Of a stretch of 54,007 nt of DNA, positions 4,833 to 51,024 are shown piece after piece. Each line of letters starts with the position of its first letter. Within the stretch, counting starts at the first letter, position 1. A program made the translations under genes and the position numbers. The DNA is from Candidatus Portnoybacteria bacterium (GTDB lineage: Bacteria; Patescibacteriota; Minisyncoccia; Portnoybacterales; GWB1-42-6), in the NCBI GenBank assembly GCA_016208745.1, contig JACQXN010000001.1, positions 1 to 54,007 on the forward strand, in the 5' to 3' direction. The notes under the pieces were generated by a model. That model was not told where the DNA came from. It searched no databases and worked only from the letters and a program-made list of their open reading frames with translations.

Positions 4833-4856
4833 GGTTGAGTTTGATGAATAATACTA

Positions 4857-4924
4857 AATCCTCCCCAGCCCTCCCTAAAGGAGGGAGTAATTCCCCTCCT
4901 TTAGGAGGGGTTAAGGGAGATTTT
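4857..4924. repeat. Family A double-hairpin mini-repeat (copy A1, intergenic)
   Basis: 'aatcctccccagCCCTCCCtaaaGGAGGGagtaattCCCCTCCtttaGGAGGGGttaagggagatttt'. Related copies at 33857-33924, 46184-46275, and halves at 26344-26380 and 26739-26780. Confidence 0.85.
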
Positions 4925-4973
4925 CAGAAAGGACATCATTTAATGATGCTTAAAGGAGTGTTATTTACCAAAC

Positions 4974-15432: not shown

Positions 15433-15451
15433 ATATTAATAAAATATTCGT

Positions 15452-15583
15452 ATTCTCCCTCCCCTCCTCAGATGAGGAGGGCTTCGGCCGTGAGCTCAGC
15501 CGAACGGGAATAAAAGGGGAGGTGTTGATTCTGAATTCAACACCCCACCTGAATCCTCCCCTCATCTGAGGGGAGGAGGAATT
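15452..15583. repeat. Family B MITE-like element (copy B1, intergenic) with ~22-bp terminal inverted repeats
   Basis: TIRs 'attctccctcccctcctcagatgagg' ... 'cctcatctgaggggaggaggaatt'. Internal hairpins 'ttcggccgtgagctcagccgaa' and 'gtgttgattctgaattcaacac'. Second copy at 38214-38310. Confidence 0.85.
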
Positions 15584-15590
15584 GGAATAA

Positions 15591-16427
15591 TTATTTATTG
15601 ACTTTATTTATATACTCCCAAAAAATATTCATTAAATATCTTGTATTTTCTCCCACCTTCCCATTCCCTATTTTATTATCGTCAATTTTAACCACCGGCA
15701 CAATACCTCTTGAAGTTGAGGAAATGAAAGCTTCGCTGGCGCCAAGCGCTTCCTTTAATTTAAGCGGCCGTTCGATCACTTTAAATTTATTTTTTGCCAA
15801 TTTTAAAATTAATCCCCTCCTTGTGCCGTGCAATATGTTTTCTTTCGCCGTAATTAACGAGTTGTTTTTGAATATAAAAAAGTTGCAGGTCGCGCCTTCC
15901 AGAACAAATCCTTTTGAGGTATAGAGAATTTCAAAAGCCTTCTTTTTTTCTTTAAGCCCCATTAGGCTCATCATGGTAGCGTAATTATTTGATTTTGCTT
16001 CGGGTTTTTCTCTTTGATGCTCGCAGGTTATCATTTTTACGCCTTTTTCATAGATATGGGGCGGGCATTCAGGCAATTCTTTCGTTGTAATAAAAAATGT
16101 CGGGCAATCATAATCGCAAGTTATGCCATTTTGGCTTTCCCCGCCGGTTAGAACGATTCTTATGGCAGCGTCTTCTATTTTGTTTTTAGCCAAAAGGCTT
16201 AAAATTATATTCCCTACTTCTTTTTTTGAAGCAGGGACTTTAAGATTTAAGCTTTTGGCTGATTTTTCAAAGCGGGCAAGATGTTCGTTTAATAAAAATG
16301 GTTTGCCATTATAAGTTCTTAAATAATCAAAAACTCCATATCCGCGCAAAAGGCCGATATCATTGATGCTAACTTTGGCTTTTTCTTCGGGAATGACTTT
16401 TCCGTTTAGATAGCAATATTTTGGCAT
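15591..16427 (-). CDS. Class IV PLP-dependent aminotransferase (branched-chain/D-amino-acid aminotransferase family)
   Basis: 'LNGKVIPEEKAKVSINDIGLLRGYGVFD', 'IRIVLTGGE'. Confidence 0.85.
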   Translation of the reverse strand: MPKYCYLNGKVIPEEKAKVSINDIGLLRGYGVFDYLRTYNGKPFLLNEHLARFEKSAKSLNLKVPASKKEVGNIILSLLAKNKIEDAAIRIVLTGGESQNGITCDYDCPTFFITTKELPECPPHIYEKGVKMITCEHQREKPEAKSNNYATMMSLMGLKEKKKAFEILYTSKGFVLEGATCNFFIFKNNSLITAKENILHGTRRGLILKLAKNKFKVIERPLKLKEALGASEAFISSTSRGIVPVVKIDDNKIGNGKVGENTRYLMNIFWEYINKVNK

Positions 16428-16488: not shown

Positions 16489-16726
16489 TGTCATTCCGGC
16501 CTTGCCTGCCCGCCGGTAGGCAGGGAATCCAGCCCCCTCTCTTAAGATAAGAGAGGGGTAGGGTGAGTTATGAATTAAAATTATAACTCCTCCCACCCTC
16601 CTCTTATATTAAGAGGAGGAGTAAATATGGATTTCCGCTGGAGTTTACCCCGTACTACGATACGGGGCGGGAGGTGGATTTATTCGTATGTGCGAAATTC
16701 GGATGAATTTTTCGCTATTCGGATAC
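16489..16726. repeat. Composite intergenic block of stacked palindromic mini-repeats
   Basis: Partial family C 'tgtcattccggcc..cagggaatcc'. Hairpins 'ccctctcttaagataagagaggg' and 'ctcctcttatattaagaggag'. 'ccccgtactacgatacggggcggg' module. Family D copy 16678-16726 'atttattcgtatgtgcgaaattcggatgaatttttcgctattcggatac'. Confidence 0.8.
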
Positions 16727-16774
16727 AAAAAAGCCCTCGGGTATTCCGGGGGCTAGATGTTATATGAAGTGATT

Positions 16775-17584: not shown

Positions 17585-17690
17585 TTAAATACCTCCCTTT
17601 TGTAAAAGAACAAATTTGTTGAATCTAATCTGTCGATGTTCGACGTCGGCAGAAATTATCGACGTCGGACATCAATAATATAAGCTAATT

Positions 17691-24798: not shown

Positions 24799-24802
24799 TA
24801 AT

Positions 24803-24826
24803 TTGTCGCTGCCGGACAGCGACAGA
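24803..24826. terminator. Conserved palindromic hairpin (REP/terminator-like), one of two identical copies
   Basis: 'ttgtcgctgccggacagcgacag'. Near-identical 'ttgtcgctgtccgacagcgacag' at 37186-37208. Both copies sit at convergent gene ends. Confidence 0.65.
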
Positions 24827-24834
24827 GTGTTTAA

Positions 24835-25749: not shown

Positions 25750-26319
25750 TTATTTTTCTCTCGCCTCTCCGTAAATAATCTTATAATGTTCCGGATCAAA
25801 CCATTCTTGATTTTCCGGCGACATTAATTTATTGCCAAGCCAGCCGGCTAAATGTCTGCGCTCACCGCTATTATTTTTTTCAAAAAATTGGCTTTGCCAA
25901 TTTAAAAATTCTTCTTTACCTAATGTCTTTTCTCTAAATTTTTGATAAATCAGTAAATCTTTTTCAGTTAACGCGGCTGGGTCAAGCTCTATAATATCGG
26001 GATTATATTCGGGTTTATAGTCGCTGTTTCTAACCTTTTTCTCAAATTCATCCACTCTCTTTTCTAACTCCGTTTGTTTTAAACCAACAATTTCTTGCCG
26101 GATTTTTTCTAATTCCTCATTTTTTGAAACAGGGTTTTCCGTGTCTTTGTAATGATGGCTGAAAACATCTTCAACTAATTTTTCTTGTTCTTCTGGGGGG
26201 AGATTTTTATAAAGAGGGCTGTGATTCAGCGTTTCTTGAGCTTCTTTTTTTGCCAAATACTCCTGAAGTTCTGCTTCAGTTTTTTCTGGCTGTGGGTTTT
26301 CAAAGTTTTGGGGGTCCAT
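25750..26319 (-). CDS. Acidic hypothetical protein
   Basis: 189-aa ORF, Glu/Lys-rich; no family recognised. Confidence 0.6.
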   Translation of the reverse strand: MDPQNFENPQPEKTEAELQEYLAKKEAQETLNHSPLYKNLPPEEQEKLVEDVFSHHYKDTENPVSKNEELEKIRQEIVGLKQTELEKRVDEFEKKVRNSDYKPEYNPDIIELDPAALTEKDLLIYQKFREKTLGKEEFLNWQSQFFEKNNSGERRHLAGWLGNKLMSPENQEWFDPEHYKIIYGEAREK

Positions 26320-26343: not shown

Positions 26344-26380
26344 AGCTCCCTCCTTTTTAAAGGAGGGGTGGGGTGGATTT
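26344..26380. repeat. Family A half-element (hairpin-2 half) flanking the DUF559 gene
   Basis: 'ctccctcctttttaaaggaggggtggggtggattt' matches the second half of A1. Confidence 0.7.
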
Positions 26381-26385
26381 ATATT

Positions 26386-26736
26386 TTAAATCTCATTGCG
26401 TATTTTCTCAACAACGTTATCTATATTTCTCAGGACGTCCAGATTGGTGAATCGTAATATCCGTAATCCTAAATTTTTCAAATACAAGTCTCTTTTTCTG
26501 TCCGCAACTATATTTTTTGTTTCGTAATGTTGTCCGCCGTCAATTTCAATAACTAATTTTGCTCTATCACAATAGAAATCAACAATATAATTATCTATTG
26601 GCTTTTGTCTGTTGAATAAACAATCCTTGATTTGCCTTTTTCTTATCTTTGACCAAAGTAACTTTTCGGCGTCAGTCAACCTCGACCTCAAGTCTCTACT
26701 TTTCGATTTTAGATAAGACACGTATCTTAAAGGCAT
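26386..26736 (-). CDS. DUF559 endonuclease-domain protein (Vsr/restriction-endonuclease-like fold)
   Basis: 'EKLLWSKIRKRQ..FNRQKPIDNYIVDFYCDRAKLVIEIDGGQHYE..DRKRDLYLKNLGLRILRF'. Confidence 0.75.
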   Translation of the reverse strand: MPLRYVSYLKSKSRDLRSRLTDAEKLLWSKIRKRQIKDCLFNRQKPIDNYIVDFYCDRAKLVIEIDGGQHYETKNIVADRKRDLYLKNLGLRILRFTNLDVLRNIDNVVEKIRNEI

Positions 26737-26738
26737 AA

Positions 26739-26780
26739 ATCCCTCCTAGCCTCCCTTTAAAAAGGGAGGGAAAAAATTTA
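26739..26780. repeat. Family A half-element (hairpin-1 half) flanking the DUF559 gene
   Basis: 'aatccctcctagcctccctttaaaaagggaggga' matches the first half of A1. Confidence 0.7.
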
Positions 26781-26892
26781 AGTGGTCATTCCACGTAGAA
26801 TACGTACCCGCTCCTCTATTGGCGGGTGGGTCACCCCGCACCAGAGTTTGCTTCGCACACACGGTACGGGGCAAGACTCATTGCAATCTAAA

Positions 26893-27789
26893 CTAAATGG
26901 ACATTTCTCGTAATATACGCACTCGTTCGTCTGTCGGTGGATGAGTCATAAATAGCGAGGAAATTTTTTTACCTTTGAAAGGATTAGTAATATATAAATG
27001 CGCAGTGGCTTTATTGGCAACTCTTAATGGTGTTTGGTCGCCTGCGATTTTTTCAAGAGCCGAGGCAAGGCCTTCGGGGTATCTGGTTAAAAGCGCGCCG
27101 TCAGCGTCAGCCAAAAACTCTCTTTTGCGGGAGATTGCCAGTTGAATTAAAGTCGTGATAAGCGGCGAAAGAATAGCTAAAATTACGCCAACCAGCGCTA
27201 AAATCGCGCCAAGTTGTCCGCCCTGCCTATCGTTATCTCTATTCCGGCCGCCAAAAAAAGAAAATCTTAAAAACCAGTCAGAGAGCAAGGCGACAAGGCC
27301 GACCAAAACAACGATGACGGTTGATAATAAAATGTCGCGATTGCCAATATGTGAAAGTTCGTGGGCGATCACTCCCTCAAGCTCGCTTCTGTTTAATTTT
27401 TCAAGCAAGCCTCGCGTGACAGCAATAACCGCGTGTTCTTTGTTGCGACCGGTGGCAAAAGCATTTGGCGCCATATCGTCAATAATATAAATTTTTGGCA
27501 GAGGCAAACCGGCGGTAATGCAAAGATTTTCAACAATATGATAAAGCTCGGGATTTTTTTCGTGCTTAACTTCATGCGCCCGATTAACTGCCAAAGCGAT
27601 TTTATCGGAATACCAATAAGAGATAAAACTCATCAGCGAGCTAAAAATCACCGCAAAAACTAAAATCGCGGGGCTGTTAAAATTATAACTAAAAACATAG
27701 CCGAGCCCGATTATAAAAACTAAAAATACGCTGATTAGAATCCAAGTTTTTAAAACATTTTTTGAAGCATGGGTATAAAGTGTTGCCAT
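26893..27789 (-). CDS. htpX: Zinc metalloprotease HtpX (peptidase M48)
   Basis: TM helices, 'HELSHIGNRD' (HExxH) and a downstream Glu. Typical HtpX length. Confidence 0.9.
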   Translation of the reverse strand: MATLYTHASKNVLKTWILISVFLVFIIGLGYVFSYNFNSPAILVFAVIFSSLMSFISYWYSDKIALAVNRAHEVKHEKNPELYHIVENLCITAGLPLPKIYIIDDMAPNAFATGRNKEHAVIAVTRGLLEKLNRSELEGVIAHELSHIGNRDILLSTVIVVLVGLVALLSDWFLRFSFFGGRNRDNDRQGGQLGAILALVGVILAILSPLITTLIQLAISRKREFLADADGALLTRYPEGLASALEKIAGDQTPLRVANKATAHLYITNPFKGKKISSLFMTHPPTDERVRILREMSI

Positions 27790-28459: not shown

Positions 28460-30292
28460 TTATAATTTCGCCGATAAGGGCAGAGAGATTACAAACGTTG
28501 TTCCTTTATTTTCAACACTTGATACCTCTATGGTTCCTCCATGGCGCTCAATAATATTTTTGGCTATATAAAGGCCGAGGCCAGAGCCTGAAGTCTGAAA
28601 CAGCAAGGCATTCTCGCCGCGGAAAAATTTAGTAAACAATCTTTCAATTTGTTTTTTTGGTATGCCGATGCCTGAATCTTTTACGGTTAGCTTGACCAAA
28701 TCCGTCTTTTTCTCCAGCTTGATGGAGATCTTTCCTCCGGGCGAAGTATATTTTATGGCGTTATCAATCAGATTATCCATAGCCAGAGCAAACTTTTCTT
28801 TATCTATATTAAGCTCGGGGATATTTTCTTTCCCTAGCTCTAATGAAAATTGTATTCCCTTTTCTTTGGCTGGCCCTTGATATCTTTTAAAAACTTCTTC
28901 AATAACGGAAAGGAGGCCAACGGGCTTAAAAATAAATCCGAATTTACCTTCTTCTACATGCGCGACATTAAGAAGATCATTGATTAATATTATGGTATGA
29001 TTGACAGCGCTGACGCCGCCTTCTATAACTCTTTGCTGTTCCTGATTTAACGCCCCAGTCTCTTTCTCAAGAAGCGCCAAAAACGACCATTTAATGCCCG
29101 TTAACGGGGTTCGCAGTTGATGAGCGGCGATAGAAACAAATTGGGATTTCATAGCATCTATCTCTTTTTCTCTTGTTGTGTCAATCATAACAATCAGGAA
29201 TCCGATTAAGTCTTCATGGTGCATAACCGGCGCCACCTTTAAATTAAATACTCTTTTAATCGGTTCGTTAATTGAAAATTCACGCACTTCATTGTCTATT
29301 TTTATATCTCCGCCAAAAGTTTTTAATAAAGATGCTAATCTGGTGGAGGTTGTTTCTCCGATATATTTATTAATAATCTGCTTTTCTGAAATTTCAAGAA
29401 TTTTTTGGGCTTCAGGATTAATAAACCGGATTTTTTTGTTCTCATCCAATAAAATAAGGCCGTCTGGAAAATTTGTCAGGGCGGCAACGGTTTTATTTCT
29501 TTCGGTCTCCGCTTCATCTCTTGCCCCTTCAAGCGCCTTTTGCGAGCTTTTAAGATCGTTAACCATTTTATTAAAAGTAGTAGCCAGCTGCCCAATTTCA
29601 TCTTTGGAATCGATTTTGACTTCAATAAATTGACCGCGGCCAATTTTTTCGGCCGCTGTTTGCAGTTTTTTTATCGGCTTAACAATATTTTTGCTTAACA
29701 GAACGGCAATAAAGGCAACTAAAGCGATAATCCCAAAGAAAAATGCAAAATTAGAAAGCATCATATCTCTTTGCGCCTTAACAACGGATTTTTCTGAAAT
29801 TCCTAAATAAAAAATCCACGGCTTTTCGTAAACCGGAGATTTTATCAAATGGGTTATTAGTTTTATTTTCTCGCCGGTTTTATAAAAAAAACTATCCTTA
29901 ATTTCAGTATCTTGATCGCCTGATGGGAAATCATTAATGATTTTGCCAAAGTCATCAGTATTGTTTGCCAGATAAATTTCCCCGTTTGGTTTAACGACCC
30001 ACCAAAATACTATATCTTCGCTTTCCCCCACTTTTTTTAATGCTTCCAGTGGCCAGACGTTTGTATATTGAGCATGAACAATAATATTTGAAACCACCTC
30101 TGCGAGCTTAACATTTTTTTCTACCAAGTTCTCTTTAATCATTTTCGTCTCAGACCAGATAGAAACAGCAAGAATAACAGAAGCTGATATCAGCGACGCC
30201 AGCAAGGTCACTAGTAAAATTTTATTCAGAATTGACTTGAATTTCGGCATGATTTGATACGAAAACACCATAACTCTACCGATGTCAGGCAT
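28460..30292 (-). CDS. Membrane sensor histidine kinase (HAMP/PAS + HisKA + HATPase)
   Basis: 'FVSIAAHQLRTPLTGI' H-box. 'DSGIGIPKKQIERLF..GSGLGLYIAKNIIERHGG' G-boxes. Confidence 0.9.
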   Translation of the reverse strand: MPDIGRVMVFSYQIMPKFKSILNKILLVTLLASLISASVILAVSIWSETKMIKENLVEKNVKLAEVVSNIIVHAQYTNVWPLEALKKVGESEDIVFWWVVKPNGEIYLANNTDDFGKIINDFPSGDQDTEIKDSFFYKTGEKIKLITHLIKSPVYEKPWIFYLGISEKSVVKAQRDMMLSNFAFFFGIIALVAFIAVLLSKNIVKPIKKLQTAAEKIGRGQFIEVKIDSKDEIGQLATTFNKMVNDLKSSQKALEGARDEAETERNKTVAALTNFPDGLILLDENKKIRFINPEAQKILEISEKQIINKYIGETTSTRLASLLKTFGGDIKIDNEVREFSINEPIKRVFNLKVAPVMHHEDLIGFLIVMIDTTREKEIDAMKSQFVSIAAHQLRTPLTGIKWSFLALLEKETGALNQEQQRVIEGGVSAVNHTIILINDLLNVAHVEEGKFGFIFKPVGLLSVIEEVFKRYQGPAKEKGIQFSLELGKENIPELNIDKEKFALAMDNLIDNAIKYTSPGGKISIKLEKKTDLVKLTVKDSGIGIPKKQIERLFTKFFRGENALLFQTSGSGLGLYIAKNIIERHGGTIEVSSVENKGTTFVISLPLSAKL

Positions 30293-30310
30293 CGGTAGAG
30301 TCTTTTAATT

Positions 30311-30356
30311 AATTCGGATGTGCGAAATTCGGATGGATTTTCGCTATTCGGGTACC
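30311..30356. repeat. Family D ~46-bp repeat (copy D2)
   Basis: 'aattcggatgtgcgaaattcggatggattttcgctattcgggtacc'. Other copies at 16678-16726, 48962-49004 and 49239-49284. Confidence 0.8.
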
Positions 30357-30357
30357 T

Positions 30358-31764
30358 TTATTGAGAGAATATAATCATTGAACCAATCAGGTTGCCATGT
30401 TCATTTCCCCAGCCCTTTAACAAGCCCTGCTCTCCGAAAGTAAAGTTGCCTATATAAGGCAGGTTTCCAGTCACGCTGTTTATTATAAGAGGCATTTTCT
30501 TTAATTCGTCTTCCGGAACGCCTAACATCGTGCAGGCGCAGTAGGTATAGATCCCAAATAAGCCGTCACCTTCCTTTATGCCTTCCGAGTTCATTGCTTT
30601 CAAAGCAGTCGTTTGGCCACGATTTAAAAGCAATTCCCAGTTTCCATGCATCATGGTGATCTTATCTCCTTCGTAAACATTAGCAAAAGTGCTTAAGGCC
30701 TTCTCTGGCAAAATAACATCTTTAACTGAAATTGCCAGATCATGCATTTCTTTATTGGCGCCCGGAATGACTCTCGCTAAAGGATTATAAGTGGTTGTTT
30801 TTACAACATTACAGGCTAAGCTTCCTTCTCCGGCAAGCTCATTTTTAATCAACCCGCCTGTCCATTCATTATAGACTTCTGCGGCCGGCTTATTATCAAT
30901 TTCATAGATAATTCTGCCTTTGGATTTAGTCACTGTTCCTTCGTGCTCCGTGACAAAGTAGCCCGCGTCATAATTCCAGCCGACTTTCAAATCTGTAAAG
31001 AACACTGTTACAACCAAGCCATTGCCATAAACCTCGCTGTTGTTAATTTCTTTCCACTTGCCGCTAAAATCATTATCAGCTGCCGAGCCTCCCAAAATCG
31101 GAGTATTATTTCCGACTACCTCTTCCATTCCCTTCAAAATATCTTCTTCATTGCCATAGCTAGCTGTTATATAAACGATTGGAGGTATTTGTCCTTCTTT
31201 GCCTGCATTGGCAATCGCTTCCAGAATCGCTTTTTTACCCGCTTCCTTGGCTGTTAAACTTTCGCTTACTTCCGCGCCGGCAACTCCAAAATCAATTCTG
31301 GGAGAATTTACCGCCATCAAAGCAAGTGAATTCATATTTTCTCCCTTAAGCATACTATCTTTAGTAATAACATGTACCGAAGACGTCCCGCCGTGTAATT
31401 TTGCCTGAGGGAAAGTGTTCCTTACTTCTTTTACAACCTCCTCAACATCGTAGCCTGCCGTCACAAAAAGAAGAATCCACTCAGGGGACTGGCCTTTTAA
31501 TCCGGTTATTACAGAAGCTGATGCTTCAGCAACCGCCTCTTTAATATTAGTCTTCTCGCTTGAACCGTATCCAGCTTGTCCAGCAGCTTGTCCGCTTTGC
31601 TCAAAAGGCTTTTGGCCCGGGGTTATAGTTGAGGTTTTGTTTCTTTGACCGGTTACAAAATACATAATCCCAACGGCGATGATTAATAAAACGACTATCA
31701 AACCGACAATTTTTATGCGGTTTGAAATGTCGGGCAGATTTTGCCCTTTTGGCTGTGTATCCAT
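30358..31764 (-). CDS. Membrane-anchored FIST-domain sensor protein
   Basis: N-terminal TM helix, then a FIST N/C-like extracytoplasmic region. Sits between the response-regulator and HK genes. Confidence 0.65.
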   Translation of the reverse strand: MDTQPKGQNLPDISNRIKIVGLIVVLLIIAVGIMYFVTGQRNKTSTITPGQKPFEQSGQAAGQAGYGSSEKTNIKEAVAEASASVITGLKGQSPEWILLFVTAGYDVEEVVKEVRNTFPQAKLHGGTSSVHVITKDSMLKGENMNSLALMAVNSPRIDFGVAGAEVSESLTAKEAGKKAILEAIANAGKEGQIPPIVYITASYGNEEDILKGMEEVVGNNTPILGGSAADNDFSGKWKEINNSEVYGNGLVVTVFFTDLKVGWNYDAGYFVTEHEGTVTKSKGRIIYEIDNKPAAEVYNEWTGGLIKNELAGEGSLACNVVKTTTYNPLARVIPGANKEMHDLAISVKDVILPEKALSTFANVYEGDKITMMHGNWELLLNRGQTTALKAMNSEGIKEGDGLFGIYTYCACTMLGVPEDELKKMPLIINSVTGNLPYIGNFTFGEQGLLKGWGNEHGNLIGSMIIFSQ

Positions 31765-33399: not shown

Positions 33400-33512
33400 T
33401 GTCATTCCCGCCCGCTTCGCCGTAGCTTCAGCGAGGCGAGCGAAAGCGGGAATCCAGGTTTTCCGTTTTTTTCTTCATCAAATCTGGATTCCAGGTCAAG
33501 CCTGGAATGACA
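33400..33512. repeat. Family C MITE-like element (copy C1, intergenic) with 9-bp TIRs tgtcattcc/ggaatgaca
   Basis: 'tgtcattcccgc..gcgggaatcc' hairpin plus 'attccaggtcaagcctggaat' hairpin. Shorter copy in uvrC at 46421-46488; partial copy at 16489-16533. Confidence 0.8.
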
Positions 33513-33543
33513 TAAAAATAATGCTCTTCACCGAAATCTTTTC

Positions 33544-33723: not shown

Positions 33724-33856
33724 AAATTCCCCTCCCATTTTTGGTGTTTTTAAAAAACTAACTAGATAAGAAATTGTAGCAGATTTTAAGAAAAAATTAA
33801 AGGGCCCGGGATAGATGGGCCTCTTTTTAAATCCGTCAAAATGGTTATGATAGCAA

Positions 33857-33924
33857 AATCCCTCCCAGCCTCCCCTAAAGGGGAGGGGCCGTTTCCCTCC
33901 TTTAGGAGGGATTAAGGGAGATTT
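33857..33924. repeat. Family A double-hairpin repeat (copy A2), just 3' of groEL
   Basis: 'aaatccctcccagcctcccctaaaggggaggggccgtttccctcctttaggagggattaagggagattt'. Confidence 0.85.
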
Positions 33925-33937
33925 ACATTCATTAATT

Positions 33938-37148: not shown

Positions 37149-37185
37149 ATTTAATTCCCGCTCAAGTAATTGGGCGGGATTTTAA

Positions 37186-37208
37186 TTTGTCGCTGTCCGA
37201 CAGCGACA
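37186..37208. terminator. Second copy of the conserved hairpin 'ttgtcgctgNccgacagcgacag' between convergent genes
   Basis: Near-identical to 24803-24826. Confidence 0.65.
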
Positions 37209-37214
37209 GGATAT

Positions 37215-40154
37215 TTATTTCAAGTATTTCCCGGTATAACTTTTTTTATTCTTGACTATATCTTTGATTTTCCCCTCTACCACAATATATCCTCCTTCAT
37301 CCCCGCCTTCTGGGCCTAAATCAATAATCCAGTCGGCGGTTTTTATTACTTCGGGATTATGCTCAATCACCAAAACCGTATTGCCGCGCGAAACCAGCGC
37401 GTGTAAAACGCTTAATAACTTATTAATATCGTCAAAATGCAAACCAGTTGTTGGCTCATCTAAAATATAAAGAGTCCGGCCGGTTGCGCGGCGGGCAAGT
37501 TCTGTGGCTAATTTTATTCTTTGTGCTTCGCCGCCAGAAAGCGTTGTGGCTGGCTGGCCAAGCTTCATATAACCCAAGCCAACTTGATTCAATGTTTCTA
37601 ATCGCTGACGAATTGCCGGAATATTTTTAAAAAATTTATTTGCCTCTTCAATAGACATTGCCAAAACATCAGCAATATTTTTTCCTTTAAATTCTATTTC
37701 CAGCGCTTCTTTGTTGTATCGCTTGCCATGGCATTCCTCACATTCCACATAAACATCGGGTAAAAAATACATTTCTATTTTTTTAGAACCATCGCCCTGA
37801 CAAGCTTCGCATCGGCCACCCTTGACATTGAAGCTAAAACGGCCTGCCTGATATCCGCGCAAGCGCGATTCCTGCGTTTGGGCAAATAAATCGCGGATAT
37901 ATGTAAAAACGCCGGTATAGGTTGCGGGATTTGAACGGGGCGTTCGGCCAATTGGCGATTGGTCAACAATAATTACTTTGTCTATGTTTTCTTTGCCTAA
38001 AATTTCTTTGTACGCGCCAGGCTCTTCATGCGCGCCATAAAATTCTTTGCTCAAAGCCGCGCCCAAAATATCGTTTATTAATGTGCTTTTTCCAGAACCC
38101 GAAACACCGGTTACGCAAACAAATTTTTCCAAAGGAATTTTAGCGTTAATGTTTTTTAGATTATGTTCGGTGGCGCTTTTAATTTCAAGATACGAATCTT
38201 TTGTTGTCTTTGATTCATTCCTCCCCTCCTCAGTTGAGGAGGGGTCGGGGGAGGTGGTGTTCAGCACCCCTCCTTTTATTCCTTCCCTTATCTGAGGGGA
38301 GGAGGAATTTTTATTTATGACAATTTTACGGCGACCACTCAAATAATCCGCCGTCAGCGTATGCGCGGATTTTAATTGGCTGGGCGTTCCTTGAAATATA
38401 ACTTTGCCGCCGTTTTCGCCAGCAGCAGGCCCTATATCAATTAACCAGTCAGCTGATTTCATTGTTTGCTCGTCATGTTCAACAACAATGACTGTATTTC
38501 CTAAATCGCGCAGTTTTTTTAGCGTTTCAATCAAGCGGCTCATATCTCTTTGGTGCAAACCAATAGACGGCTCATCTAAAATATAGACAACGCCCGAAAG
38601 CCCCGAGCCAATTTGCGTAGCCAGACGAATCCTTTGACCTTCTCCGCCAGATAAAGTTGTGGCTGATCGTTCAATGGTTAAATATTCCAAGCCAACATCA
38701 ATTAAAAACTGCAATCGCGCCAAAATTTCTTTTATGATGCTGTTTGCGATTTTTGATTCATTAACGCTTAATTTTAGTTTACGAAAAAAATCTACTGCTT
38801 TTTCAACGCTCATTTCAGATATCTGATTTATCGCAATCCCGTTTATTTTCACAGCCAAAGCCTCTGGTTTCAATCTTTTTCCAAGACAAGTCGGACATTT
38901 TTTAATCAACATATATTTTTCAATTTCTGCCCGCGAAAAATCAGATTCTGTTTCTTTCCAGCGCCTTTGTAAATTTGGAATCACGCCTTCAAATTTATTG
39001 TCTCCGTATAAAATCCTGTCGATGTCGGACGTCGACAGATTCTTAACCGAGGTATTCATTGAAAAATGATGACGCTTAGCGACCTCTGATAATTGCCAAT
39101 AATACCAGCCTTGCCGGCCAACCCGATGAGATGCTGTGGCCCAAGGTCTGATTGCGCCTTCAGCCAATGTTAAATTAGGATTTGGGATAACGAGCTTTGG
39201 ATCAATTTCCAGTTTTGTGCCCAGGCCCTGACAATCAGGGCAAGCGCCATAAGGGCTGTTGAAAGAAAAAATTCTTGGCGCGATTTCTGGCAAACTAATG
39301 CCGCATTTTTCGCAAGCGAAGAGTTCGGAAAAAATTAAATCCGAATCGCTTACCGCCAACCGCCTACCGCCTACCGCCTTCTTTGTATTTTCTTTTTTCT
39401 GGCTGTAGTCGGTAGTCGGTAGTCGATTGACTATTATAACTCCTTGCCCCAATTTCAACGCCGTTTCCACAGAATCAGCAATCCGCGCGCGAAATTCAGG
39501 ATCCTTTTTTTCTTCCAAAGACAACCTATCAACCACTACCTCCACATCATGCTTCTTCTGTTTGTCTAATTTTAATTCCATTGCTTCATCAACCCGATGC
39601 ACAACGCCGTCAACTCTAACGCGCACAAACCCGGCTTTTAAAATCTGCTCTAAAACTCCCTGATGCTCACCTTTGCGGCCGCGAACCATTGGCCCGAGAA
39701 CCATAATCTGGCTGTCTTTCGGCAATTCAAGGATTTTTTCAACAATTTGACTGGCGCTTTGTCTTTTTATCAGTTGGCCGCATTGCGGGCAATATGGCTT
39801 GCCGATTCTGGCAAATAAAAGACGGAGATAATCATATACCTCCGTTATTGTGCCTAAAGTTGAGCGCGGATTGCGCGAAACGCTTTTTTGGTCAATAGCA
39901 ATCGCAGGCGAAAGCCCTTCAATTTTATCAACATCCGGTTTATCCATCACGCCCAAAAACTGCCGCGCATAAGCAGATAAACTTTCAACATAGCGGCGCT
40001 GGCCTTCAGCGTAAATTGTATCAAACGCCAAAGAAGATTTTCCCGAACCCGAAAGACCGGTTATTACAACCAGTTTATTTTTAGGGATATCCAAGTCTAT
40101 ATTTTTTAAGTTGTGGACTCGAGCGCCCCTAATTTTTATAAAATCTTGCAGCAT
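37215..40154 (-). CDS. uvrA: Excinuclease ABC subunit A (UvrA), carrying two in-frame mini-repeat insertions
   Basis: Two ABC ATPase modules: '[23 protein letters not shown]', '[13 protein letters not shown]', LSGGE signatures. Zinc fingers '[15 protein letters not shown]'. 979 aa. Confidence 0.95.
38214..38310. repeat. Family B element copy B2 inserted in-frame in uvrA inter-domain linker
   Basis: 'attcattcctcccctcctcagttgaggagggg..tatctgaggggaggaggaatt'. Encodes '..[27 protein letters not shown]..' between the 'YLSGRRKI' and '[14 protein letters not shown]' segments, which are near-contiguous in other UvrA proteins. Confidence 0.8.
39348..39425. repeat. Inverted tandem 'taccgcc' repeat element inserted in-frame in uvrA
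   Basis: 'cgcttaccgccaaccgcctaccgcctaccgcc' ... 'ggctgtagtcggtagtcggtagtcg'. Encodes '[20 protein letters not shown]', an extra ~20 aa just before zinc-finger '[13 protein letters not shown]'. Confidence 0.7.
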
Positions 40155-45819: not shown

Positions 45820-47079
45820 GTGAAAAATAATCCTATTGGAAAACTCAAAAAACTGCCACAAAAACCGGGCGTATATACGTTAAAAGATAAGGCCGGCCGG
45901 CTGATTTATATTGGCAAAGCGATAAATCTGCGAAATCGCGTAAGATCGCATTTTTCTAGAACAAGTATTTTTTATAAAAATGACTTAGCTAATATTGTCG
46001 CTGATATCGACTGGATTGAAACAAAAAATGAGAAGCAAGCATTGCTTTTAGAAAACGAGCTGATAAAAAAATATCAGCCTCGCTACAATATTCAATGGCG
46101 TGATGATAAAAGTTATTTCTGGGTAAGATTTACGAATGACGAATGGCCAAGGGTGATAGTGGCGCATAAAGGTAGTCTAATAAATTCTCCCCAGCCCTCC
46201 CCCGTATCAAGTACGGGGCGGGCTCTAAAGGGAGGGAGTGATTCCCCTCCTTTAGGAGGGGTTAGGGGAGATTTTATCGGTCCTTTTGTCTCTGGCCGCG
46301 AATTGCGAAAAACTTTGCGAGCCTTAAGAAAAATATTTCCTTTTCGCACTTGCAAAAATTCCTATGATAAGCCCTGCTTGCAATGGCACTTGGGATTATG
46401 TCCGGCACATAAACCGCATTATCATTCCCGTGAAAGCGGGAATCTAGAAGATAAAAAATCTGGATTCCGGGTCAAGCCCGGAATGACAAAAGAGAGTCAG
46501 ATAGATAAATACCTAAACTCTCTCGTCGCCCTCTCTCAATTCCTCCGTCTCTACGCCGGCGAAAAAATTCGCATTGAGGCTTATGATATTTCTAATATTC
46601 AAGGGAATTACGCGACTGGATCAATGATTGTTTTTTATGGAAACAAACCATCAAAATCAGACTATCGTAGATTTAAGATAAAAACGATAAAAGGCGCAAA
46701 TGATGTGGCAATGATAAAAGAAGTTTTAAAACGCCGCCTCGGACACCCCGAATGGCCCTATCCGGATTTGATTTTGATTGACGGCGGCCTTGCGCAGCTT
46801 AATGCCGCGGTCTCGTCTATTAGCAAGCAACTACCATCCACCGCTATTATAGCGCTTGCGAAACAACAAGAAGAAATTTATACTGAATATAGTAGTAAGC
46901 CTCTTAAAGTTAATCCGTTGCCTGAGTCATTTAGATTAACTTTTCAGCATATCAGAGATGAGGCTCATAGATTTGCTATTTTTTATTATCGCTACCTTCA
47001 TGCGACAAGAGACTTTAGAAGAACTAGAAAAAAAGTTACAAAAACGCGCTTTGGCGCGGCAAAAGAAAAAGAAACCTAA
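45820..47079 (+). CDS. uvrC: UvrC-like excinuclease subunit (GIY-YIG + Cys motif + RNase-H-like endonuclease domain; lacks UvrBC and HhH regions), carrying two in-frame mini-repeat insertions
   Basis: GIY-YIG 'GVYTLKDKAGRLIYIGKAINLRNRVRSHF'. 'FPFRTCKNSYDKPCLQWHLGLC'. 'IEAYDISNIQGNYATGSMIVF..ILIDGG'. 419 aa. Confidence 0.8.
   Translation: MKNNPIGKLKKLPQKPGVYTLKDKAGRLIYIGKAINLRNRVRSHFSRTSIFYKNDLANIVADIDWIETKNEKQALLLENELIKKYQPRYNIQWRDDKSYFWVRFTNDEWPRVIVAHKGSLINSPQPSPVSSTGRALKGGSDSPPLGGVRGDFIGPFVSGRELRKTLRALRKIFPFRTCKNSYDKPCLQWHLGLCPAHKPHYHSRESGNLEDKKSGFRVKPGMTKESQIDKYLNSLVALSQFLRLYAGEKIRIEAYDISNIQGNYATGSMIVFYGNKPSKSDYRRFKIKTIKGANDVAMIKEVLKRRLGHPEWPYPDLILIDGGLAQLNAAVSSISKQLPSTAIIALAKQQEEIYTEYSSKPLKVNPLPESFRLTFQHIRDEAHRFAIFYYRYLHATRDFRRTRKKVTKTRFGAAKEKET
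46184..46275. repeat. Family A element copy A3 (with an extra 'ccccgtatcaagtacggggcggg' module) inserted in-frame in uvrC
   Basis: 'attctccccagccctcccccgtatcaagtacggggcgggctctaaagggagggagtgattcccctcctttaggaggggttaggggagatttt'. Encodes 'SPQPSPVSSTGRALKGGSDSPPLGGVRGDF' between the GIY-YIG domain and the Cys motif. Confidence 0.8.
46421..46488. repeat. Family C element copy C2 inserted in-frame in uvrC
   Basis: 'atcattcccgtgaaagcgggaatctagaag..tctggattccgggtcaagcccggaatgaca'. Encodes 'HYHSRESGNLEDKKSGFRVKPGMTKES'. Confidence 0.75.
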
Positions 47080-49238: not shown

Positions 49239-49284
49239 TATTCGTATGTGCGTAATTTGGATGAATTTGCGCTATTCGGATACT
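49239..49284. repeat. Family D repeat copy D4
   Basis: 'ttattcgtatgtgcgtaatttggatgaatttgcgctattcggatac'. Confidence 0.75.
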
Positions 49285-51024
49285 GCTATTTTTACTCATC
49301 TTAAAAACTTCTTCTCTTTTTTCGGAAATATTGCCTGGCCCTCCTCTTATCAATGGACTCAGTTTTTTAAAGTTGTAAGCAAAAGAGAGCGTAATTTATT
49401 TTTCGTTTTTTTATTTTTTACCATCGCTTCTTTAGTTTTTATTGGCGCAAGATATTATCTTGGCAACACAGAGGTCGCCCCAGCCAAAGGCGGCAGCTAT
49501 ACCGAAGGCATTATCGGTTCGCCAAGATATTTAAATCCGATTCTTGCACAAACAAATGACGCTGACCGTGATATAGTCCGTATTATTTTTGCCAGCCTCT
49601 TAAAGTATGACGGGCAAGGCAATCTTATCAATGATTTAGCCGAAAGCTATACTATTGGAAATAACGGAAAAATATACGAGGTCAAAATTAAACAGAACGC
49701 CTTTTGGCATGATGGCCAAAAGCTGACCAGCGATGATGTGGTCTTTACAATCAAGGCTATTCAACAGCCTGAATATCAAAGCCCCCTAAGAATCAATTGG
49801 CAGGGCGTGGAAGTTGAAAAAATAGATGATTTAAATGTTCGTTTTAAGCTAAAAAATGCTTATGCTCCCTTTTTATACAATCTAACTTTTGGTGTTTTGC
49901 CAAAACATATCTGGCAGGATGTCGCCACAACTGATTTTCATTTAAGCGAACAAAATTTAAAACCGATTGGCTCGGGACCTTATGTTTTTAAAAAACTGGA
50001 GAGAAATAAAGACGGCCTGATTAAAATAATTGAGCTGGAAGCATTTAACAAATATCACAACGACGGACCTTATCTTAAAAACATTAACCTTAAGTTTTAT
50101 CCAGACGAAGAAAGCGCTATCGATGCTTGGCAAAAATCAGAAATTCAAGGGATAAATTTTATTTCTCCAAAAAATCAATCCAGAATAAAAAATCAACAAA
50201 CAGGATTAAATATCTATTCCCTAACCCTGCCAAGATACTTTGCGCTTTTTATAAATCAGACGCAAAACAAGGCCTTGGCTGATAAAAATGTCAGACAGGC
50301 GCTGGCGCACGCGATAGATAAAGACAGTTTGCTTACTGAGGTTTTGGATGGAGCAGGGAAAAAAGTTGACTCGCCTGTTCTTGAAGGCATGATTGGCTAT
50401 TCAGACCAGACAAAGATTTATGAATTTGACCTAGAAAAAGCAAAAAACATTCTTGACGAAGCCGGCTGGAAAGACGCCAATAATGATGGCTTCAGGGAAA
50501 AAGCCGAAACGAATTTAGAGTTTTCTTTAGTCACAATTCCTTGGACAGAATTTTCCCAAACCGCGGATTTGCTTAAAAAAAACTGGGAGGCAATCGGCGC
50601 CAAAGTTAGCATTGAAACCAAAGACGCGACCAGCCTTCAGCAGGAAAATATTCGCCCGCGCCAATACCAAATGCTTCTTTTTGGAGAACTTTTAAATATT
50701 GATCCCGATCCTTTTTCTTTCTGGCATTCCACCCAAACCAAAGACCCGGGCTTAAATCTGGCGCTTTACGAAAATGCCCAAGTGGACGCTATTTTGCAAG
50801 ACGCTAGGCAAGATCTTGATCCTGTCTCAAGAGCTAATAAATATCAGCAATTCAGCCAAATTATTACAGAGGACTTGCCGGCCATTTTCCTTTATACGCC
50901 AGATTATCTCTACCCTATTTTAAATAAATTCAAGGGCGTTGATTTAAAAATTCTCGTTATGCCCTCAGACCGCTTTTCGCAAATAGAAAAATGGTATAGC
51001 GAAACAGCGAGAGTCTGGAAATAG
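49246..51024 (+). CDS. ABC transporter substrate-binding protein, family 5 (oligopeptide/dipeptide/nickel type); start uncertain
   Basis: N-terminal TM anchor 'LFFVFLFFTIASLVFIG'. Family-5 SBP-like body ('GGSYTEGIIGSPRYLNP', 'PVGSGPY'). The track start lies inside repeat D4, so the true start is probably downstream. Confidence 0.7.
   Translation: MCVIWMNLRYSDTAIFTHLKNFFSFFGNIAWPSSYQWTQFFKVVSKRERNLFFVFLFFTIASLVFIGARYYLGNTEVAPAKGGSYTEGIIGSPRYLNPILAQTNDADRDIVRIIFASLLKYDGQGNLINDLAESYTIGNNGKIYEVKIKQNAFWHDGQKLTSDDVVFTIKAIQQPEYQSPLRINWQGVEVEKIDDLNVRFKLKNAYAPFLYNLTFGVLPKHIWQDVATTDFHLSEQNLKPIGSGPYVFKKLERNKDGLIKIIELEAFNKYHNDGPYLKNINLKFYPDEESAIDAWQKSEIQGINFISPKNQSRIKNQQTGLNIYSLTLPRYFALFINQTQNKALADKNVRQALAHAIDKDSLLTEVLDGAGKKVDSPVLEGMIGYSDQTKIYEFDLEKAKNILDEAGWKDANNDGFREKAETNLEFSLVTIPWTEFSQTADLLKKNWEAIGAKVSIETKDATSLQQENIRPRQYQMLLFGELLNIDPDPFSFWHSTQTKDPGLNLALYENAQVDAILQDARQDLDPVSRANKYQQFSQIITEDLPAIFLYTPDYLYPILNKFKGVDLKILVMPSDRFSQIEKWYSETARVWK

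Follow-up and report, generated by a model that had tools for sequence, protein, structure and literature searches.

A DUF559 nuclease gene framed by inverted triplex-motif repeats, and the coupling of its subfamily to such repeats across many phyla

REP/REPIN-RAYT systems consist of a small nuclease-type gene flanked by inverted hairpin repeats, together with many gene-less singlets and inverted doublets, and the copies keep a stable chromosomal context from sample to sample. MITEs and the Rickettsia palindromic elements are short palindromic elements.

BoxC was first described in Escherichia coli and was followed by the PIT elements and then by TM/TMECO in Holder et al. 2015 (PMC4666352); these repeats have been known since the 1990s, with earlier work by Bachellier and by Hoyne/Maher. 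The class II intrastrand triplex motif consists of a 5′ pyrimidine domain, a loop, a purine domain, a short loop and a mirroring 3′ reverse-Hoogsteen domain, with G.GC, A.AT and T.AT as the triads (PMC4666352). The TMECO pattern CCCTCNCCC-N3-6-GGGNGAGGG-N3-GGGNGAGGG forms a stable triplex in vitro, and there are 23 TM copies in MG1655 and 3610 across 262 proteobacterial genomes (PMC4666352). TMs stall polymerase in vitro and TM loci show an excess of rearrangement; no function, and no activity that would provide mobility, was found near TM repeats (PMC4666352).

DUF559 is a very large protein family of unknown function that is represented in E. coli K-12 by YcjD. The repeat kind and the protein family are each already known, and their pairing seems to be unreported: no literature was found that ties DUF559 to BoxC/PIT/TM repeats, and the DUF559 papers found do not treat repeats. 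The coupling described here gives BoxC/PIT/TM repeats a first candidate partner enzyme and DUF559 a candidate partner repeat, and it makes the old question on TM repeats directly testable through TM cutting, TM copy number and local rearrangement.

The DUF559 gene and its two flanking units

The window, meaning the whole stretch of DNA analysed, is a contig assigned to a Candidatus Portnoybacteria (CPR) MAG; it is 54,007 nt long and has a GC content of 39.6%. The gene, its neighbours and the two repeat units that frame it are located as follows.

26386..26736, minus strand: DUF559 ORF of 116 aa, Vsr-like, PD-(D/E)XK superfamily (PF04480, E=2e-35)
26893-27789, minus strand: htpX (M48 peptidase HtpX), upstream neighbour of the DUF559 ORF
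25750-26319, minus strand: gene for a 189-aa protein without a Pfam match, downstream neighbour of the DUF559 ORF
26738..26769, minus strand: 5′ flank unit Y, read on the gene strand as CCTCCCTTT-TT-AAAGGGAGG-CTA-GGAGGGATT, then T-ATG
26348..26379, plus strand: 3′ flank unit X, CCCTCCTTT-TT-AAAGGAGGG-GTG-GGGTGGATT, beginning 6 nt past the stop codon

The neighbouring genes all lie on the same strand as the ORF, and an exact look-up of the 189-aa protein returned no record.

The PF04480 match covers residues 9-115 with 121.4 bits (gathering cut-off, 20.6), and Asp53, Glu64, Asp66 and His70 (D53, E64, D66, H70) are invariant in an alignment of 39 homologues. A profile search of the PDB with hmmsearch recovers 3HRL (E=4e-27), a Neisseria DUF559 protein of unknown function (PDB), and the catalytic domain of I-Bth0305I (3R3P, E=2e-4). 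The AF2 model has a pLDDT of 89.4, and its Foldseek matches are 3hrl (E=7e-7), I-Bth0305I (E=8e-5), the nuclease domains of PvuRts1I/AbaSI, and Vsr (E~0.07). The modelled structure has a Vsr-like PD-(D/E)XK nuclease fold, and the Vsr-like catalytic core is intact. The invariant residues, the PDB profile matches and the AF2 model with its Foldseek matches make it very probable that the protein works as a hydrolytic nuclease of the Vsr clade.

Vsr itself has the same fold and a partly similar active-site geometry, but the Foldseek similarity is weak (E~0.07) and the Vsr motif is D..H..H whereas the window protein has D..ExD..H. The adjacent genes checked (HtpX and the 189-aa protein) include no Dcm-type methyltransferase, so membership in the Vsr repair system proper is not supported. 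Databases name many of the homologues 'very-short-patch-repair endonuclease'. The Vsr-like homing endonucleases, comprising I-Bth0305I and the free-standing enzymes of fractured genes (Dassa 2009, PMC2677866), are similar in two respects: the catalytic domain of I-Bth0305I is homologous (hmmsearch E=2e-4, Foldseek TM 0.66-0.77), and the window gene is likewise a compact, selfish-looking ORF between genes. Unlike them, the window cassette has no intron, intein, split gene or extra DNA-binding domain, and its borders are repeats instead of one conserved target gene.

On the plus strand, the left side of the ORF reads CCCTCCTTT-TT-AAAGGAGGG at 26348-26367 followed by GTG-GGGTGGATT up to 26379, and the right side reads AATCCCTCC-TAG at 26738-26749 followed by CCTCCCTTT-AA-AAAGGGAGG at 26750-26769. 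Read along the gene, the flanks are TTTTTTCCCTCCCTTTTTAAAGGGAGGCTAGGAGGGATTT-ATG (5′) and TAA-AATATAAATCCACCCCACCCCTCCTTTAAAAAGGAGGGAGC (3′). Units X and Y are inverted with the third-strand segments of both pointing toward the gene, and together the flanks form a 31-nt inverted repeat that is 81% complementary (I12: 26352-26382 / 26735-26765). The third-strand segment of unit Y doubles as the Shine-Dalgarno sequence AGGAGG, located 8 nt before the ATG. ViennaRNA, which models the hairpins and not triplexes, folds both flanks as DNA into hairpins with 8-9-bp stems (-7.7 and -7.9 kcal/mol), and the fold of unit X has z=-3.5. The arrangement CCCTCC-N3-12-GGAGGG occurs 7 times in the window, where 100 shuffles lead to an expectation of 0.00. 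With a second arm and a hairpin fold in each, the flanks are more than the generic GGAGG of a ribosome-binding site. No T-run follows either hairpin in the window sequence, and the flanks match no Rfam family at the gathering score or at E up to 10.

Family A, the triplex motif and gene-less copies

Four doublets elsewhere in the window have a bearing on the origin of the flanks.

4852..4926, no strand assigned: family-A head-to-head doublet X-TAATT-Y (repeats D1, I22), between the 3′ ends of convergent genes
33852..33927, no strand assigned: family-A doublet (repeat D1), 10 nt 3′ of the groEL stop codon
46178..46277, no strand assigned: family-A doublet with a nested CCCCGTA..TACGGGG hairpin (repeats D1, D17), in frame within uvrC
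16534..16621, plus strand: ORF-less tail-to-tail doublet, Y - ATG A ATT TAA AATTATAA - X

The preliminary description of the locus had placed the gene between the second half of one family-A repeat and the first half of another. Alignment of the flanks with the halves of the copies at 4852, 33852 and 46178 confirms this layout: all share a C-rich arm, an A/T loop, a G-rich arm, 2-3 nt and RGGRGRGGATTT, and the G-rich tail ends in ATTT in both flanks and in the three family-A copies. On the plus strand, the flank on the left has the make-up of the second half (hairpin plus G-rich tail) and the one on the right that of the first half (C-rich tail plus hairpin). The flanks are not identical copies of family A but a sister variant, in which the A/T stem extension and the loop are longer. 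The earlier account missed that each family-A half is itself a complete class II intrastrand triplex motif unit. Its suggestion that the gene had been inserted with target duplication does not hold, as the flanks are inverted and not direct, and no direct duplication is seen in the window sequence where the cassette or any of the three family-A copies meets its surroundings. The same account counted the gene as the third small nuclease-fold gene bracketed by repeats in the window; Pfam identifies no other such gene there, and uvrC and uvrA, which both carry repeats within their reading frames, are the further nuclease-related genes affected. The uvrC ORF with its doublet is still open at 419 aa and has the GIY-YIG and UvrC_RNaseH domains. 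The observation itself is confirmed and its interpretation is partly supported.

The family-A doublets are structured. The copy at 4852..4926 folds as DNA at -19.9 kcal/mol (z=-4.3), the copy at 46178..46277 has a fold with z=-4.9, and the copy at 33852..33927 folds as two hairpins that are closed by tail-tail pairing. The doublet at 16534-16621 is colinear with the cassette minus the ORF in a pairwise alignment to the joined cassette flanks. It retains the ATG, the last codon with the stop, and the lineage-specific spacer AAT(A/T)TATAA, and for this reason it is probably an internal-deletion derivative of the DUF559 cassette.

Each unit consists of a pyrimidine arm, a loop, a purine arm, a 3-nt linker and a mirrored purine/T tail. 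The tail mirrors the purine arm in 151 units and copies it directly in 41. The mirror analysis was repeated with no condition placed on the tail, using the triad code G.G, A.A, T.A and arms with a mean length of 8.1 nt. Mirroring extends over the whole purine arm in 301 of 969 hairpin-sides from all loci compared to 36 in the direct-copy control, and tails swapped in from other hairpins averaged 63 and reached at most 87. Linker length has a sharp peak at 3 nt (227/346), and the tail base opposite an arm A is A in 308 cases, T in 100, G in 6 and C in 3. Both window flanks have 9/9 allowed triads and a 3-nt linker, with T opposite A in unit X. Their sequences fit the definition of a class II intrastrand triplex motif of the BoxC/PIT/TM kind. 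Purine-motif triplexes cannot form in RNA (PMC4666352), and the constraint on the flanks therefore acts at the DNA level.

The window units share with BoxC/PIT/TM the class II layout, a G/C-rich composition, and a dispersed, mostly intergenic distribution, often as inverted ('palindromic') pairs. TMECO was described in Proteobacteria, whereas the window units have other sequences and come from a CPR bacterium; the window arms CCTCCCTTT and CCCTCCTTT depart from the strict TMECO pattern. The TMECO triplex was seen in vitro, whereas that of the window variant is predicted from its sequence. In the window two units enclose a DUF559 nuclease gene, whereas neither a mobility gene nor an enzyme gene was reported with TM (PMC4666352).

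The exact unit pattern, searched in one genome per species, occurs at 118 or more loci in very diverse phyla. These include Acinetobacter, Geomonas, Uliginosibacterium, Gallionellales, deltaproteobacteria, Dehalococcoidales, Nitrospirota, Peribacteria, SR1, Saccharibacteria and other CPR groups. Gene-less doublets far outnumber the gene copies. DUF559 is present in only 7 of the 118 unit loci among the matches listed, and in 6 of these 7 it lies within ~150 nt of a unit; several of the 7 may be one orthologous Acinetobacter locus. Doublets among the matches listed are head-to-head in 70 cases, tail-to-tail in 12 and direct in 35, and most copies listed have the head-to-head form X-linker-Y with tails outward, as in family A. 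Abutted tail-to-tail junctions without an ORF are found at L072 (..AGGAGGGATTT/AAATCCTCCCC..) and L116. No transposase, RAYT-like or other neighbour family recurs beside the units among the unit loci listed, and a viral collection yielded 1 match to the unit pattern, making it almost absent there.

DUF559 homologues and their repeats

Homologues of the window gene carry the same kind of flanks at other locations. P0002 (76% identity; locus L003/4) follows BacA, P0004 (73% identity; L005) follows HtpX, and P0006 (67% identity; L006-8) lies between a dTDP-sugar isomerase and an epimerase in a sugar-nucleotide operon; all three have nearly identical flanks, 5′ TTTTCCTCCCTTTTTAAAGGGAGGTTAGGAGGGATTT-ATG and 3′ TAA-ATCCACCCCAGCCCTCCTTTAAAAAGGAGGGAG. 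Unit Y is near-identical in L003, L005, L006 and L228, and 3′ flanks homologous to unit X are found in L003, L005 and L228. The Portnoybacteria paralogue P0064 (64% identity), located between TatD and Def, has the flanks CCCCTCCTTTAGGAGGGGTTAGGGGAGATTTAA-ATG and TAA-ATCCTCCCCAGCCCTCCCTAAAGGGAGGG, which are exact halves of the family-A element of the window and correspond to the halves of the doublet at 4852..4926. The link between gene and repeat drawn in the preliminary description thus recurs in other DUF559 copies. The P0006 reading frame runs through its 3′ flank to give ..HPNPPLKRRE, and many homologues read into the units, with C-termini like ..NPPxPSFKKEG and N-termini like ..SPPLGGVRGDF.

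A metagenome scan with the 39-sequence alignment gave 80 loci at 43-66% identity. Units were counted with a strict detector (perfect stem, C/T-only 5′ arm, G-rich tail), and ORFs of at least 120 aa from the same metagenome loci were the controls. A unit is present within 45 nt upstream of the start in 44 of 75 DUF559 genes versus 4 of 109 control ORFs, and within 45 nt downstream of the stop in 27 of 69 versus 11 of 126. Units occur on both sides in 19 of 65 DUF559 loci, and the background is 0.31 units per kb. The enrichment at DUF559 homologues is ~5- to 15-fold over control ORFs, with p-values that are optimistic because the counted units are related by descent. Unit tails abut the start and stop codons and always point inward, and the tail-to-ATG distance is 0 to 14 nt among homologues. 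The arm sequence varies by protein clade (CCCCTCC, CCCCCC, CCCTCCCCC, CTCTCCC and others) and the architecture is constant. Pairs of proteins that share an arm type have an identity of 0.53 and pairs that differ in it one of 0.46, a difference reached by 0 of 1000 permutations; hairpin type co-varies with protein clade. Several DUF559 paralogues can share one genome or contig. These data show that a DUF559 subfamily is physically coupled to triplex units across many phyla. The flanked homologues elsewhere and the enrichment over control ORFs make a mobile nuclease cassette or nuclease-linked repeats, as proposed in the earlier account, a reasonable reading.

The DUF559 gene of E. coli K-12, ycjD (b1289, 117 aa), has sapF and fabI as its neighbours. 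A full BoxC/TM unit, CCCCTCGCCCCTCTGGGGAGAGGGTTAGGGTGAGGGG, which is a TMECO family member, is located 167 nt (~170 nt) downstream, and a degenerate unit overlaps the ycjD stop codon. The supplementary table of Holder et al. lists this TM with ycjD as its neighbour, without comment (PMC4666352). The 56-nt unit is present in all 5426 complete E. coli genomes at a median of 18 places; ycjD is single copy in 3378 of the 5426 and missing from 38%, and TM units persist in the ycjD-less genomes. TM places were counted in 59 chromosomes sampled at even steps down the ranking, with the ycjD-locus unit as a proxy for ycjD. The median number of TM places is 20 (range 14-29, n=38) where the ycjD-locus unit is retained and 4 (range 1-22, n=21) in the other chromosomes, a difference with a Mann-Whitney p=8e-9 that ignores phylogroup and takes ycjD by proxy. 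This correspondence is only suggestive that the presence of the ycjD locus tracks TM copy number.

Readings of the association

The window locus is on balance best read as a conserved nuclease cassette, unit Y-DUF559-unit X, that is functionally tied to triplex repeats, is comparable to REP-RAYT or a free-standing homing endonuclease, and would spread in a homing-like manner, within genomes and occasionally between them; we hold this to be somewhat probable. The cassette units and the ORF-less family-A doublets are members of one repeat family. We infer that DUF559 may be the cognate endonuclease of the units, nicking or cutting there. It would recognise one of two targets, the hairpin/triplex that folds on single-stranded DNA or the tail-to-tail junction, a palindrome in which GGGATTT abuts AAATCCC, the candidate sequence being ...GGAGGGATTT/AAATCCCTCC... 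A 116-aa hydrolytic nuclease cannot rejoin DNA, so spread would need host break repair, which would copy from another copy with the ~30-nt units as short homology arms. The ORF, and perhaps the units too, could spread in this way within a genome and at times laterally, and the reported instability of genomes near TM repeats would then follow from cuts by DUF559. Such a mechanism would account for an ORF that fits exactly between the tails, for the lack of target duplications and for the unrelated contexts, and also for several paralogues per genome and unstable TM loci. Against this reading, the exact P0064 and P0011 proteins each occur in one stable context over many samples, and hence there is no sign of recent transposition, and TM units persist in E. 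coli without ycjD.

Several known classes of element were compared with the locus. REP-RAYT is similar in having inverted flanking copies (here I12) and many gene-less inverted doublets (here the 70 head-to-head among the matches listed). The RAYT enzyme is an HUH Y1 transposase, whereas the window enzyme is a hydrolytic Vsr-like PD-(D/E)XK nuclease; the GTAG/CGTC tag is absent here, the window repeat has a mirrored third-strand segment, and several paralogues per genome are possible. REP-RAYT proper was rejected because the flanked gene is DUF559 and not Y1_Tnp, with no RAYT-like family near the units listed. The ORF-less derivative at 16534-16621 and the in-frame insertions in uvrC and uvrA resemble MITEs and Rickettsia palindromic elements. 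Unlike MITEs, the window elements have no transposase and no target-site duplication was seen, and an insertion sequence or MITE was set aside on the same grounds despite the 31-nt inverted repeat. An integron attC or cassette array does not fit, as units rarely precede an ORF and there is no R′/R″ core. Insertion of the gene into the linker of a family-A doublet is inconsistent with a gene that abuts the tails and not the linker, and phage carriage with the 1 match in the viral collection.

Three other explanations of the association were weighed. DUF559 could be a host maintenance nuclease that, in the manner of Vsr, clears triplex or hairpin obstacles at TM repeats during replication or repair, with flanking units that are a by-product or autoregulatory, and that spreads neither gene nor repeats. 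This would suit a Vsr-like fold with a conserved active site, copies found in a single stable context in many samples, the single-copy state of ycjD in E. coli, and the in vitro polymerase stalling and locus instability associated with TMs (PMC4666352). We consider it unlikely because the same ORF-plus-flank unit is found in unrelated gene contexts, several paralogues occur per genome or contig, the ORF-less derivative at 16534-16621 exists, and ycjD, unlike a housekeeping gene, is missing from 38% of E. coli genomes. The fixed position of the units, with tails inward and abutting the start and stop codons on both sides, argues against independent triplex repeats, arising through another factor or replication errors, that gather at DUF559 genes for causes other than what the protein does, such as a preference for inserting at A/T-rich borders or hitch-hiking in variable regions. 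The ~5- to 15-fold enrichment over neighbouring ORFs and the co-variation of arm type with protein clade also count against such gathering, as does the lack of any other recurrent neighbour family or transposase among the unit loci listed. Independence is improbable on this evidence, even though most units lie far from DUF559 (7/118 loci among the matches listed), units persist in ycjD-less E. coli, and insertions are in frame within uvrA and uvrC.

The last explanation is that the gene was acquired horizontally and that its flanks only serve expression, as a 5′ hairpin with a Shine-Dalgarno sequence and a 3′ hairpin that stabilizes the transcript, their resemblance to family A being incidental. 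AGGAGG is indeed located 8 nt before the ATG, and hairpins at the 5′ and 3′ ends of mRNAs are common, but the mirrored third-strand rule, the T opposite A and the 3-nt linker have no RNA rationale. Moreover, there is no T-run after either hairpin, the tail-to-ATG distance ranges from 0 to 14 nt, and identical units exist as hundreds of gene-less copies, making this explanation very improbable. A broader version of the nuclease cassette reading is tentative. The DUF559 subfamily including E. coli YcjD might be triplex-repeat-specific endonucleases that with their repeats form a phylum-spanning class of selfish/symbiotic element, whose spread and instability would arise by structure-specific cutting followed by host repair. 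Confirmation would establish a partnership of the REP-RAYT type that relies on another nuclease fold and on non-B (triplex) DNA.

No pair of filled and empty orthologous alleles was recovered among the htpX relatives or at the E. coli ycjD locus, which also counts against the cassette reading. The closest HtpX relatives (83-84% identity) have an unrelated Zn-ribbon gene next to htpX and offer no comparable junction. In E. coli genomes that lack ycjD, the interval from sapF to fabI holds a different TetR/RND island, the junction is devoid of a unit, and hence there is no empty site.

Two further features stand between the live htpX stop (26893) and the DUF559 cassette.

26778-26834, minus strand: relic second copy of the htpX 3′ end (..THPPIEERVRILRGMTT and stop), part of 26778..26871
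26834-26871, minus strand: CCCCGCACC..GGTACGGGG hairpin, beside the htpX relic

The relic was read by comparison with the htpX ends of L005 and L127-L134 and is, as judged from the sequence, ~70% identical in nucleotides to the live 3′ end.

Relic gene ends and contig ends beside DUF559 genes

The interval between the stop codon of the live htpX gene and the DUF559 cassette holds the remnant of a second htpX 3′ end.

26778-26871, relic htpX 3′ end, last 18 codons (VTHPPIEERVRILRGMTT, then stop), together with its hairpin

The relic is preceded by a 38-nt hairpin. The relic and live ends have about 70% nucleotide identity with mostly synonymous differences, and the lineage-specific ERVRILR sequence is common to both. 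The cassette may have arrived together with a piece of the htpX gene of a related strain, or a small insertion may instead have replaced the htpX 3′ end.

A relic gene end also lies beside ycjD, the DUF559 gene of E. coli K-12. The region downstream of ycjD (L217, NC_000913.3 1351040-1351410) contains, in order from the ycjD 3′ end, a relic duplicate of that 3′ end (..ETVLENIRQGLNR..), a partial unit and a full BoxC/TM unit. The ycjD gene is missing from 38% of complete E. coli genomes, and most genomes of this kind, with ycjD presence inferred by proxy, carry far fewer TM copies.

On the contigs carrying the DUF559 homologue P0011 (L228-L236), a pair of co-oriented DUF559 paralogues lies 1.6 kb apart, separated by a GT4 glycosyltransferase gene in the opposite orientation; each paralogue has its own flanking units. 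Two Logan contigs encoding a protein identical to the window's DUF559 protein (L001 and L002) both end exactly 34 nt beyond the stop codon, within the 3′ unit, as would be expected if assembly had stopped at a repeat.

Repeats within excision-repair genes

Repeats are inserted in two excision-repair genes of the window.

45820-47079, + strand, uvrC homologue with GIY-YIG and UvrC_RNaseH domains
46178-46277, uvrC insert 1, a family-A doublet with a CCCCGTA..TACGGGG hairpin nested within it
about 46400-46491, uvrC insert 2, a different kind of repeat consisting of ATTCCC-N8-GGGAAT followed by GGATTCCGGGTCAAGCCCGGAATGACA
37215-40154, − strand, uvrA homologue of 979 aa
38220-38303, in-frame hairpin-repeat insertion in uvrA

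The uvrC frame remains open across both in-frame insertions, and these recall the Rickettsia palindromic elements, which also lie within genes. The uvrA insert belongs to the CCCCTCCTCAGTTGAGGAGGGG family, which occurs again at 15438-15599.

Triplex-unit arrangements and other repeat families

Regular tandem arrays are a further arrangement of triplex units in other genomes.

L053 149-725, Dehalococcoidales MAG, period about 182 nt
L077 1168-1595, Peribacteria MAG, period about 198 nt
L126 3660-3889, period about 99 nt

The head-to-head doublet can also form the center of a larger element that is bounded by separate terminal inverted repeats, either gagtccataat..attatggac or tctcaaaattg..caattgtgaga; this arrangement occurs in genomes of deltaproteobacteria, Syntrophaceae and Nitrospirota (L015, L020, L031, L078, L111 and L010, L058, L084, L114, L123).

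Other repeat families also occur in the window.

33480-33515 and 46456-46491 (D18), also 33400-33450, hairpin family GGATTCCrGGTCAAGCCyGGAATGACA
16682-16732, 30312-30362 and 49240-49290 (D3), three intergenic copies of a 51-nt repeat, ATTCGGATGTGCGAAATTCGGATG..
24799-24833, 37183-37217, 39012-39046, 17630-17653 and 30276-30299 (D4/D8), CTGTCGnTG..CGACAG palindromes at gene ends

The partner sequence of the D18 hairpin family is ATTCCCGC..GCGGGAAT. Its ATTCCC-N8-GGGAAT form is the same as that of the Neisseria dRS3 repeats. The D3 repeat is unrelated to family A, and one D4/D8 palindrome, the copy at 39012-39046, lies within the uvrA ORF.
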